Shown: positions 12,108-28,248, numbered from the stretch's first letter. The stretch is DNA of 64,000 bases from Bradymonadia bacterium (GCA_049318805.1 JBMOFP010000004.1:493-64492); one strand, 5' to 3'. The notes: a model not told the origin generated them from the sequence alone. Numbers and translations are program-made.

Positions 12108-13307
12108 GTGAGCGCCTCGCCGCCCTTCGTTCAGTTCGGCCGGTTCCGGCTGTTCAAGTCGCTCAAAAAGGGCGGCATGGCGCGGGTGCACCTCGCGCTG
12201 GATCCCGACGAGGCCGCGGCGGGCGTCGACCGGCTCTACGCGGTCAAGACGCTGCTGCCGGAGTTCGTCAACGAGCGGGCGTACCGCGAGATGTTCGCGA
12301 CCGAGGGCAAGGTCGGCCGGCGCCTCGAGCACCCGCACATCGTCCGCACCTGGGAGGCGGGCGTTCAGGACGGCAACCCCTACATCGCCATGGAGCTGAT
12401 CTTCGGGCAGGACGTGTCGACCATCCTGCGGCGACTGCGGCGCACGAACGAGGTGATGCCGCTTCCGCTGGCGGTCGGGCTCGCCCGGGACGTGTGCGCG
12501 GGGCTCGCCCACGCCCACGGGGTGCACGACGAGCACGGCCAGCCGCTCGAGATCGTCAATCGCGACGTGAGCCCCGGCAACGTCATGGTGAGCTGGAGCG
12601 GCGAGGTGAAGCTCATCGACTTCGGCATCGCGCAGACGACCTTCGACGTGCGGACCCAGATCGGCACCATCAAGGGCAAGCTGAGTTACATGAGCCCCGA
12701 GCAGGTGCGCGGCCTGCCCGTGGACGCGCGGAGCGACGTCTTCGCCGTGGGCACGATGCTCTACGAGCTCGCGACGGGCGTGCAGGTCTTCCACGACGAG
12801 GGCGACTTCGCGACCATGGAGCGCGTGCGGCGCGCCGAGTTCGAGCCACCCTCGGCGCACAACCCCCAGGTCGATCCCGAGCTGGACGCGATCATCACAC
12901 GCGCCCTGTCCCGCGAGGTCGGGGCCCGGCCCTCGAGCCGTGAGCTGCACCGTATGCTCGGCGGCTGGCTCACGGCGCGCGGCCTCACCGTGGGGGCCGC
13001 GGAGGTCTCGGGCTTCGTCCACGCGCTTTTCGGTGCGGAGTACGCGACGGTGAACGCCGAGGTGGAGCGCGCTCGCCGCGAGGCGCTGGGCCTGGTCTCG
13101 GACCTCGAGCCGAGCCCGCGGCAGGTCGACGACACGCCGGCCCGCAAGACCCCCGCGCCTCCGGAGACTCTGGGGACTCCGCGCGCTCCGGCGACGCAGG
13201 CCCCCGCCGGACGGGTCGCGACCCCGTGGCGCGGCATCGTGCTGCTCGCCCTCGCCGCCCTGGCGCTGGGGGCCGCCGTGGGGGGGCTGGTCTGGTGGCT
13301 GCGGTGA
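12108..13307 (+). CDS. Membrane-anchored Hanks-type Ser/Thr protein kinase
   Basis: GGMARV, YAVK, NRDVSPGNV, DFG, GKLSYMSPE, SDVFAVG and a C-terminal TM helix. Confidence 0.97.
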   Translation: MSASPPFVQFGRFRLFKSLKKGGMARVHLALDPDEAAAGVDRLYAVKTLLPEFVNERAYREMFATEGKVGRRLEHPHIVRTWEAGVQDGNPYIAMELIFGQDVSTILRRLRRTNEVMPLPLAVGLARDVCAGLAHAHGVHDEHGQPLEIVNRDVSPGNVMVSWSGEVKLIDFGIAQTTFDVRTQIGTIKGKLSYMSPEQVRGLPVDARSDVFAVGTMLYELATGVQVFHDEGDFATMERVRRAEFEPPSAHNPQVDPELDAIITRALSREVGARPSSRELHRMLGGWLTARGLTVGAAEVSGFVHALFGAEYATVNAEVERARREALGLVSDLEPSPRQVDDTPARKTPAPPETLGTPRAPATQAPAGRVATPWRGIVLLALAALALGAAVGGLVWWLR

Positions 13308-13381
13308 GCCCGGGTCGGTCGGTGTCGTCGCGCCGGGGGGTTTGACGCCGCGCCGCGCCCGTGCGCTGATTCCCGGCGCCC

Positions 13382-26324: not shown

Positions 26325-27289
26325 AGGTCGCACAGGTGTGGGGGGTGATGGTCCTCGCCCTGGGCCTCGCGCTGCCGGGCCTGGGCCGCGCGCAGGCGCC
26401 CGCGTCGGCCCCTGCGGAGTCTCCAGCGGTCGTCGTCGGGGTCTACGTGCCGTCGGTCGCCTTCGGGGACTCCATGGCCCGCGCGCGCTTCGCCGAGGCC
26501 CTCGCCGCGAACCTGTCGCAGGCCATCGGCCGACCGGTGCGGGGCAAGGCCTTCGCCGGGGCCGGGGAGTTCTTCACGCAGGTCCAGGCCAACGAGGTCG
26601 ACTTCGCCGTCGTCGACGCCGCCGTGGCGCTGGAGCGGGGCGGCTTCACGCCGCTCGCCCAGGCGCAATCCGGCGGCAACCCCGCCCGCGCGCTCGTGCT
26701 GGTCGCCCAGAGTCCCGGCACCGTCGCGTCCTTCGCCGGCAAGTCCGTCGTCTTGCCCGAAGGTGTCGGTCGTGAGGACCGGTTTCTCGCGAACTTCGTG
26801 CTGCAGGGCCAGCTCGGCGCCGAGCACTTCGTACGTCAGAAGACCGTGCGCGATGCGCAGGCCGCCTTGAGCCTCGTCAAGCTCGGCAAGGCCGATCTCA
26901 CCGTCACCTGGGACGCCCAGGCCTCGGGCCTCGCCGTCGTGCTCTCGAGCCGACCGGCGCCGCTGCCCGTCTTCGTGCGGGCCCGCGCGGGCGTGCCGGC
27001 GGACGTGCAGGCCGCCGTCGCCAAGGCCGCGCCCGGGCTCAGCGTGGGCGCGGGCCCCTTCGAGGGCTTCGGGCCCTGGAACCCGAACGGCTCGGCCCTC
27101 TCGGCGCTGCGGTCCGCGCTCGGCGCCGCCCCCGGGGCCGCGCGGGTCGAGCCCGTCTTTGCGCCCTCGACCGGCGCGTTGCCCACACCCGAGGTGTTCC
27201 TCGGCGCGAGCCTCTCGCCCGGCGCAGCGCCGCTGCCCCCCGCCGCGGACCTCATCCTCGTGCCGGCCCCGCCGTCGGATCCGCTGTGA
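26321..27289 (+). CDS. Periplasmic substrate-binding protein (PhnD/SsuA-like fold)
   Basis: Signal peptide, then ALAANLSQAIGRPV, VDFAVVD, AALSLVKLGKAD, typical of type II PBPs. ATGA overlap. Confidence 0.75.
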   Translation: MKVAQVWGVMVLALGLALPGLGRAQAPASAPAESPAVVVGVYVPSVAFGDSMARARFAEALAANLSQAIGRPVRGKAFAGAGEFFTQVQANEVDFAVVDAAVALERGGFTPLAQAQSGGNPARALVLVAQSPGTVASFAGKSVVLPEGVGREDRFLANFVLQGQLGAEHFVRQKTVRDAQAALSLVKLGKADLTVTWDAQASGLAVVLSSRPAPLPVFVRARAGVPADVQAAVAKAAPGLSVGAGPFEGFGPWNPNGSALSALRSALGAAPGAARVEPVFAPSTGALPTPEVFLGASLSPGAAPLPPAADLILVPAPPSDPL

Positions 27290-28248
27290 CGTACACCGCG
27301 CTCCTGATCGGGGAGCCGTTGCGCGTCCGCGCCGCTCAACGCGTGGTCGTGTGCACGGGCGGCGAGCCCACGGTCGAACCGGACCCGGCGGCGGCCCTCG
27401 AGCGGCTCCGCACCCACGCCTTCAACCATGTCCTGGTCGATCTGAGCGCGCTCGGCGACGCGCCGTTGCCGACGCTCCGCGCGCTCGTCGCTCTGCGCCC
27501 GGGTGAGCCGCTGCTCCTGCTCGCGGCGCCGTCGCCGCCGCCGCCCGCCGTGCTCGTGGCGCTGCTCGCTGAACCGTGGTTCACCCACCTCGCGGCGATG
27601 GAGAGCCCGTGGTTCATGGAGGAGCTCGCGGCGACCCTGCGGAAGCTCGAGGGCGCGCCGCCCTTCGGTCCCGCGTGTGTCCTGCCCTGGGGGGCGGTGG
27701 TGCACTCCGTCCCGGTGGTGCGCAGCGAGGACAAAGCGACGGCGCTGCACGCGATCGCCCAGTTCCTCTCGCGACTCGGCATCGGCGGCCGAGTGCTCCA
27801 TCGTGTCCAGGACATCGCCGACGAGATGTTGATGAACGCCATCTACGACGCCCCCGTCGGCCCCGACGGCAAACCGCGCCACGCCGCCGCGAGCCGCACC
27901 ACCCCGGTGGCCTACGCGCCCGGGGAGGAGGCCGTGTTCAGCTTCGGCAGCGACGGCCGTTCGCTCGCGCTCTCGATCCAGGACCCCTTCGGCGCGCTCA
28001 CCCTCGACACCGTGCGGCGCTACCTCGCGCGCGGCCTGCATCGGGGGGACGACCAGATCGAAAAGAAGGCCGGGGGCGCCGGGCTCGGTCTGTATCTGGA
28101 GTGGGAGAGCCTCGGCAGCTTCACCGTGCACGTCGAGCCTGGCCGGCGGACCGAGATGCTCGGCTTACTCGACATCCGCGGGAGTTTTCGCGAGCTGGCG
28201 GCCGCACCCAAGAGCCTGTTCCTGTGGAGTCCGCGTTCGGCGGGCTAG
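27286..28248 (+). CDS. REC-like domain + HATPase (RsbW-like Ser kinase) protein
   Basis: N-terminal AFNHVLVDL REC-like part. C-terminal DEMLMNA (N box), IQDPFG (G1), GGAGLGLYL (G2), GRRTEM. No HisKA His. Confidence 0.7.
   Translation: MTYTALLIGEPLRVRAAQRVVVCTGGEPTVEPDPAAALERLRTHAFNHVLVDLSALGDAPLPTLRALVALRPGEPLLLLAAPSPPPPAVLVALLAEPWFTHLAAMESPWFMEELAATLRKLEGAPPFGPACVLPWGAVVHSVPVVRSEDKATALHAIAQFLSRLGIGGRVLHRVQDIADEMLMNAIYDAPVGPDGKPRHAAASRTTPVAYAPGEEAVFSFGSDGRSLALSIQDPFGALTLDTVRRYLARGLHRGDDQIEKKAGGAGLGLYLEWESLGSFTVHVEPGRRTEMLGLLDIRGSFRELAAAPKSLFLWSPRSAG

Follow-up and report, generated by a model that had tools for sequence, protein, structure and literature searches.

Partner switching, built from a PP2C/SpoIIE-type phosphatase, a STAS antagonist and a GHKL-type serine kinase, is textbook sigma-factor control, as in the RsbU-RsbV-RsbW (sigma B) and SpoIIE-SpoIIAA-SpoIIAB (sigma F) switches of Bacillus. 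To our knowledge, partner switches with a non-sigma output have been worked out in a few systems only. Here, we analyzed a 64,000-nucleotide stretch of DNA from a Bradymonadia bacterium (GCA_049318805.1, JBMOFP010000004.1:493-64492; hereafter the window), in which the genes between positions 12,108 and 28,248 had been proposed, in an earlier note made from the sequence alone, to form a complete partner-switching system. With a probability of about 0.6, these genes encode a partner-switch-like module with periplasmic input and a non-sigma output, which has no sigma-factor gene and is split into two adjacent operons. This interpretation is based on fold and motif evidence for all three parts, their recurrent linkage in related genomes, the predicted topology of the proteins, and the fact that no sigma factor was found.

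Several described systems share parts of this organization. HsbR-HsbA(-HsbD) and SiaABCD of Pseudomonas aeruginosa are partner switches with non-sigma outputs (PMC5085249, PMC6482189, PMC7647112, PMC8457831). The principle of a sigma-less switch is therefore not new here, although no description of the present architecture was found in the published literature searched, so that the earlier designation of the switch as undescribed applies to its architecture and not to its principle. HsbR combines receiver, PP2C and RsbW-like kinase domains in one protein, whereas the phosphatase and the kinase are separate proteins here. SiaA is a HAMP-containing membrane PP2C, like the phosphatase of the window, which gives a partial match to the NCBIfam SiaA model (4e-18). 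Compared with both systems, the window contains no diguanylate cyclase, its STAS protein belongs to a different subfamily (with a zinc ribbon and a transmembrane anchor), and its partners in the periplasm, a periplasmic solute-binding protein (PBP) and a TPR protein, have no counterpart there. In Chlamydia trachomatis, a transmembrane PP2C with a periplasmic sensor likewise feeds a STAS/RsbW pair, but the target of the chlamydial RsbU-RsbV-RsbW system is a sigma factor, and its RsbV and RsbW are soluble proteins of a single domain each (PMC11619594). Finally, Leptospira interrogans LvrC (PDB 9qih; PMC13269768) has the same two-domain Rec-Bergerat architecture as the protein encoded from position 27286 (hereafter the GHKL protein). 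LvrC has a canonical receiver whose D53 is phosphorylated by LvrB, and it has been proposed to hold a sigma factor (PMC13269768). In contrast, the receiver of the GHKL protein is devoid of the conserved Lys and Thr, its gene travels with STAS-zinc-ribbon and periplasmic TPR/PBP genes, and the orientation of the two domains differs (whole-chain root-mean-square deviation of ~20 Å).

The Bacillus switches have the same three parts as the window, with the Ser of the STAS protein at the same structural position, and the closest solved folds of the two small proteins are SpoIIAA/RsbV/TM1442 and SpoIIAB/RsbW, respectively. Unlike in Bacillus, no sigma gene lies close by, a degenerate receiver precedes the kinase domain, the STAS protein is extended by a Cys4 ribbon and a membrane tail anchor, the phosphatase is a membrane-spanning sensor of the Cache/HAMP type, and the kinase is co-translated with two proteins of the periplasm. 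The region is a conserved variant of a known signalling scheme, with unusual forms of its three parts.

The kinase position is occupied by the GHKL protein. As a single sequence, it scored only 13.9 bits against Pfam HATPase_c_2 (PF13581; gathering cut-off 27.4 bits, E=0.054), had no Pfam match with E<0.01 and no NCBIfam match, and phmmer against the PDB returned only hits with E>0.4. However, 65 relatives were detected among 5.8 billion proteins, nearly all of them from uncultured Myxococcota, and the nearest carry Bradymonadia or Myxococcota metagenome-assembled genome (MAG) labels. In a family alignment of 32 of these relatives, HATPase_c_2 was matched in 14 sequences (E<=0.01, best 1.2e-6) and HATPase_c in nine. 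Residues invariant in the alignment are E180 and N184 of the N box (DEMLMNA, 27820-27840), D233 and G236 of the G1 box (DPFGAL, 27982-27999), and G264, G266 and G268 of the G2 box (GGAGLGL, 28072-28092). The protein consists of a receiver (residues 1-125) and a Bergerat (GHKL) domain (residues ~135-315), and its AlphaFold2 model has a predicted local distance difference test score (pLDDT) of 93 and a predicted TM-score of 0.91. Using Foldseek and TM-scores normalised to target length (TMt), the C-terminal domain of the model matched SpoIIAB (TMt 0.72-0.77) and RsbW (TMt 0.74-0.80), and the best whole-chain match was LvrC (E=3e-9). The prediction that this protein would score as a HATPase was thus supported by the family profile and the fold, and not by its own Pfam score. 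The three boxes together with the fold identify an RsbW/SpoIIAB-type GHKL kinase without a predicted signal peptide, and we infer that it has kinase activity and that the STAS Ser is its likely substrate.

The N-terminal domain is less typical. The family profile matches PDB receiver domains (RpfC, 6e-7) and Asp52 is retained, but the Lys position is occupied by Met105 (Leu in most relatives) and the Thr/Ser position by Ala, and only a single acidic residue follows beta-1, which departs from the canonical receiver of the LvrC type. Because the conserved Lys and Thr are replaced, the REC-like/HATPase label of the earlier note stands with a receiver that, judging from these residues, is best read as a pseudo-receiver.

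The STAS open reading frame (ORF) opens at a GTG at 20073, but orthologues begin at the MSKFF motif (20136), and the start was therefore placed there. The protein narrowly missed the Pfam STAS family (PF01740; 21.6 bits against a gathering cut-off of 22.6, E=2e-4), and its STAS_2 match was likewise sub-threshold. Among the three profile scans that had been suggested (STAS, SpoIIE and HATPase_c_2), only SpoIIE was therefore clearly matched by a single sequence of the window. Nevertheless, the Ser of RINSCG (codon 20295-20297) is invariant across a 32-sequence STAS family alignment whose mean column identity is 33%, and the family profile places the Ser of RINS(x)G opposite the DSAG Ser of TM1442. 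The AlphaFold2 model has a pLDDT of >90 at residues 1-160, and its best Foldseek matches are TM1442, SpoIIAA, a Haliangium antagonist and RsbV (TMt 0.65-0.75). Both the fold and the invariant putative phospho-Ser, at the position expected at the start of helix 2, are those of a STAS antagonist. C-terminal to the STAS fold are two Cys pairs (20457-20468 and 20553-20570), which probably form a zinc-ribbon-like (Cys4) unit, followed by a low-complexity linker and a transmembrane helix (20889-20954). The STAS-plus-ribbon unit is widespread, with 4020 clusters at 50% identity (E<=1e-10) in a library of 1.8 billion proteins. These proteins fall into size classes of ~160 aa, 235-360 aa and 670-820 aa, the last of which contains two copies of the unit and is common.

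The third part is a membrane phosphatase with a first transmembrane helix (residues 14-32), a periplasmic Cache-like loop of ~160 aa (residues ~33-195), a second transmembrane helix (residues 196-214), a HAMP domain and a PP2C/SpoIIE domain. All four PP2C metal motifs (GGDWW, GDVTGHG, YTDGL and EDDITL) are intact, including the metal-binding Asp residues of this phosphatase class. The sCache_3_2 match of the loop itself is weak in Pfam, and homologues at ~40% identity carry sCache_3_2/dCache_1 in this loop. In addition, Sec signal peptides were predicted on the 820-aa TPR protein and on the PBP. Therefore, the presence of all three partner-switch parts and of extracytoplasmic inputs, both of which had been claimed for this region, was confirmed.

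Between the STAS and phosphatase genes lies the gene for a PAS protein with a coiled-coil-like C-terminal tail, which is translationally coupled to both neighbours by overlaps and always sits between STAS and PP2C in relatives. It is homologous to the PAS domains of PAS-HisKA kinases downstream of STAS in three related loci (L061, L025 and L068; locus numbers with the prefix L are ours). In the first two of these, PAS-HisKA-HATPase kinases following STAS were recognized by Pfam, and L068 has a gene of equal size, in the same cluster as these kinases, with a PAS match. The stand-alone PAS protein was also considered as a hidden RsbW, which was ruled out by its clear PAS_4 match.

The linkage of these genes was examined across relatives. 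A survey of 185,579 species genomes confirmed at least 243 loci of the GHKL family, and 80 species-level loci were screened by tblastn and a STAS-ribbon hidden Markov model. A triad in the gene order secreted TPR protein, PBP and GHKL protein was present in 36 of the 80. Among the 21 triad loci with a complete 10 kb upstream, STAS-PAS-PP2C was found directly upstream in eight, PP2C alone in one, and neither in 12. In the 44 non-triad loci, a STAS-ribbon gene lies immediately downstream of the GHKL gene in 26, immediately upstream in two, and within 2 kb in another two. GHKL and STAS genes are thus directly adjacent in 28 of the 80 loci, with a STAS protein of the window's family, and this linkage is, as an association, strong evidence for a joint function of the GHKL protein and the STAS family. 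Moreover, the six genes are contiguous with gaps of <170 bp in five loci (L017, L019, L023, L074 and L084), and L091 has nine co-directional genes from the giant TPR protein through the GHKL protein. The two halves co-occur even when unlinked, since in GCA_041389985.1 they are found on two separate contigs (L016 and L089). L007 has a giant-TPR/STAS operon that is divergent from the GHKL gene and 52 bp away from it; these genes are also all present in L087, where the TPR and STAS matches lie on the opposite strand. Overall, the linkage of module genes recurs across Myxococcota and relatives, in which the three parts are contiguous or adjacent, as they are in adjacent operons here, though not universally. 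Synteny in relatives, whose absence would have spoken against the proposal, was accordingly found to be conserved across the family loci.

The loci with a GHKL-STAS pair also have conserved divergent neighbours, namely a REC-GGDEF-EAL gene in 20 and a T2SSE/PilT-like ATPase gene in 16, which hints at a link to cyclic di-GMP (c-di-GMP) or type IV pili in this branch. Such neighbours are found in L047 (7223-9985, minus strand), L048 (5649-6758, minus strand) and ~20 related loci. The REC-GGDEF-EAL neighbours are confined to distant relatives of the window kinase.

All eight proteins listed in the earlier note were found in the window by Pfam, codon-position GC, family profiles and structure models (Table 1). 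ORF calling was guided by codon-position GC and Pfam, because the G+C content of 72% makes ORF lists noisy. The four overlaps of start and stop codons are exact as well: ATGA at 20960, TAG/GTG sharing 1 nt at 21505, ATGA at 26321, and GTGA at 27286. However, these genes do not form one co-oriented run as had been thought. A thiopurine S-methyltransferase (TPMT) gene lies on the minus strand between the phosphatase and secreted TPR genes, convergent with the former (their 3' ends overlap) and divergent from the latter, and there are therefore two transcription units: operon A (Hanks kinase, 2226-aa TPR protein, STAS, PAS and HAMP-PP2C) and operon B (secreted TPR protein, PBP and REC-like/GHKL protein). 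The probable start of the TPMT gene is the ATG at 23782, and the codon-position GC pattern agrees with the minus strand. A mis-call or a chimeric join was considered for this gene and ruled out by the Pfam, NCBIfam and codon-position GC results and by junction-crossing contigs. The junction is not an assembly artefact, since it is crossed by independent lake-metagenome contigs (X2, 19983-25097; X4, 22442-27913; X8, 22534-25104).

Table 1. Features of the window and of related loci discussed in the text.
Feature	Sequence	Coordinates	Strand	Evidence
Hanks-type Ser/Thr kinase, 399 aa (operon A)	window	12108..13307	+	Pfam Pkinase 3e-31
Giant cytoplasmic TPR protein, 2226 aa (operon A)	window	13382..20062	+	Pfam TPR repeats
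STAS protein with Cys4 zinc ribbon, linker and transmembrane anchor, 275 aa (operon A)	window	20136..20963	+	Family profile, AlphaFold2, Foldseek
Stand-alone Cys-rich PAS protein, 181 aa (operon A)	window	20960..21505	+	Pfam PAS_4 8e-9
Membrane sensor phosphatase, HAMP and PP2C/SpoIIE (operon A)	window	21505..23142	+	Pfam HAMP 1e-15, SpoIIE 6e-39
Thiopurine S-methyltransferase (TPMT)	window	23081..23782 (ORF 23081-23926)	-	Pfam 4e-66; NCBIfam 2e-69, above cut-off
Secreted TPR protein, 820 aa (operon B)	window	23862..26324	+	Pfam TPR_16 3e-43 and others; signal peptide
Periplasmic solute-binding protein (PBP), Phosphonate-bd PF12974 (operon B)	window	26321..27289	+	Pfam 2.5e-8, 34 bits against a cut-off of 27
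Degenerate receiver and RsbW/SpoIIAB-like GHKL protein (operon B)	window	27286..28248	+	Family profile, AlphaFold2, Foldseek
Tandem STAS-ribbon and Hanks kinase proteins, ~740-775 aa	L025	6011-8260
	L049	429-2654
	L073	7497-9818

The TPMT gene does not belong to the signalling module. What lies between the PP2C and TPR genes varies: TPMT in the window, TPMT together with an FGE-sulfatase gene in L001, and different genes in L003 and L091. Since these passengers differ among genomes, the two-operon split of the window looks like an insertion into an ancestral cluster. Separately, a TPMT gene of 43-59% identity is divergent from the triad in L001, L002, L005/L014, L009 and L021, even without PP2C. 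A promoter and terminator scan of the region gave no matches above chance and no operon boundaries. The sequencing runs carrying this DNA are lake metagenomes only, with no RNA runs among them. Near-identical DNA to 19800-28400 was present in at least 20 lake-water or freshwater metagenome runs from many studies, and the organism is therefore a widespread freshwater bacterium.

In the proposed module, the GHKL protein would phosphorylate the Ser of the membrane-tethered STAS protein, and the Cache-HAMP-PP2C protein would dephosphorylate it when its periplasmic domain senses a signal. This signal would probably be brought by the ligand-loaded PBP, for which the periplasmic TPR protein may serve as a scaffold. 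The unphosphorylated, membrane-held STAS protein would then capture the GHKL protein and free or engage a non-sigma target. Candidate targets are the giant cytoplasmic TPR protein encoded beside STAS, the PAS protein, or an unlinked protein. The TPR matches of the giant protein are confined to residues ~1250-1830, it has neither a transmembrane helix nor a signal peptide, and its NCBIfam matches are weak and generic TPR ones. Its homologues are encoded directly upstream of STAS in several relatives (L003/L012, L013/L091, L017, L019, L089, L007 and L087), and it is a candidate scaffold or target.

The earlier suggestion of an output in motility or polarity, which relied on an AgmK-like label for the giant TPR protein and on a nearby romR, gained no support from our analysis and was not disproved by it; neither label was confirmed, as NCBIfam gave only weak TPR and generic receiver matches. 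The response regulator concerned (6662-7573, minus strand) combines a canonical receiver with a long linker rich in Pro and Ala and with a short, conserved helix at the C-terminus (LWEIVPPLAEAILKEEI), an architecture that resembles RomR.

Several observations weigh against the partner-switch-like module. The G1 box of the GHKL protein is atypical, with DPFG instead of DxGxG, and neither a sigma factor nor any other defined target for the kinase to hold was recognized in the scanned ORFs of the window or in the neighbour clusters scanned. Others also favour an alternative in which two independent systems happen to be neighbours: a Hanks-type (eukaryote-like) kinase and the HAMP-PP2C protein would act on STAS, and operon B would be an envelope-related module of its own, with a GHKL protein that has no effect on STAS. 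The module halves are separate transcription units in this window, parted by the minus-strand TPMT gene, and STAS and PP2C are out of reach in the 12 triad loci with full flanks mentioned above. In a distant triad subgroup, the triad is instead followed by an Omp85/POTRA gene. This subgroup comprises L028 (10605-12455) and 12 further loci, several of them in ruminant-gut MAGs, and an uncharacterized 238-aa protein also follows there. Furthermore, three loci encode Hanks kinases with tandem STAS-zinc-ribbon units fused to them (Table 1), the two-unit size class is common in the 1.8-billion-protein library, and fusions of eukaryote-like kinases with STAS have been noted in Sorangium (PMC2887360), in agreement with these proteins. 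Because of such fusions and the Hanks kinase gene in operon A, STAS could be phosphorylated by a Hanks kinase, either in place of the GHKL protein or in addition to it.

Two features of the Hanks kinase of the window speak against this role. Its catalytic loop reads NRDVSPGN (12558-12581) against the consensus HRDxKPxN, and since both the Lys and the His are replaced (by Ser and Asn, respectively), its activity is uncertain; DFG and SPE are present. It has a C-terminal transmembrane tail anchor and no extracellular domain. In L091 and L089, the giant TPR gene is not preceded by the kinase gene, which is therefore not a conserved member of the module, in contrast to the earlier view that the system is wired to it. 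The GHKL-STAS adjacency, the five contiguous six-gene clusters and the co-directional nine-gene run likewise argue against two unrelated systems, and we consider this alternative unlikely.

A conventional anti-sigma system is less probable still. In such a case, the REC-like/GHKL protein would be an anti-sigma factor of the LvrC/RsbW type for a distal sigma factor, STAS would be the anti-anti-sigma factor, and input would come through the PP2C phosphatase. Its best whole-chain match is indeed a putative Rec-Bergerat anti-sigma factor, LvrC (PMC13269768), and SpoIIAB and RsbW, its matches at the domain level, both bind sigma factors. However, as the earlier note had stated for the window, no sigma factor was found among the scanned ORFs of the 64 kb, nor did one appear in those conserved neighbour clusters that were inspected or scanned at 65 related loci. 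Genes conserved in these neighbourhoods encode periplasmic TPR/PBP proteins, REC-GGDEF-EAL proteins, a PilT-like ATPase, PAS histidine kinases and Hanks kinases, and the receiver is degenerate, unlike the canonical one of LvrC. As for an output of the SiaABCD type through a diguanylate cyclase, no GGDEF domain was detected in the scanned ORFs of the window. Finally, chance clustering of abundant signalling domains is very improbable: myxobacterial genomes are rich in kinases, TPR and STAS proteins (PMC2887360), but dozens of species-level genomes share these gene orders, with protein identities of 30-60% and with translational coupling kept.

Further observations were made outside the module. 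Directly after the GHKL gene, the window has a 139-aa ORF (28298-28945, plus strand) with a signal-peptide-like N-terminus and no family match; this position is occupied by a DUF3006 gene in L003, L008 and L091. A TPR protein at 39182-42487 (plus strand) has a weak Dynamin_N match (E=7e-6, residues 604-674). At 36428-37126 (minus strand), a CarD/CdnL-type RNA-polymerase-binding protein adjoins PEGA and Big_1 proteins, and a PEGA/Big_1/CarD block is also located downstream of the triad in L005.

Beyond the partner-switch-like module itself, a broader proposal can be made only tentatively, and we place it below even odds: that these proteins, including the PBP and a TPR scaffold in the periplasm, form an undescribed envelope-to-cytoplasm switch of Myxococcota, Bradymonadia and Bdellovibrionota, with a membrane-proximal protein complex rather than a sigma factor as its output and the STAS-zinc-ribbon unit as a general phospho-regulated adaptor domain. 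The output would then be, for example, the giant TPR protein or Hanks kinases that have this STAS-zinc-ribbon unit as a docking site, and in related versions it would be c-di-GMP enzymes or the PilT-like ATPase. The window holds the full part set of a large, unnamed family found mainly in predatory and gliding bacteria. If the partner-switch interpretation is true, the module would show how, with neither histidine kinases nor sigma factors, a periplasmic ligand can be translated into the phosphorylation of a Ser on a STAS adaptor tethered to the membrane.

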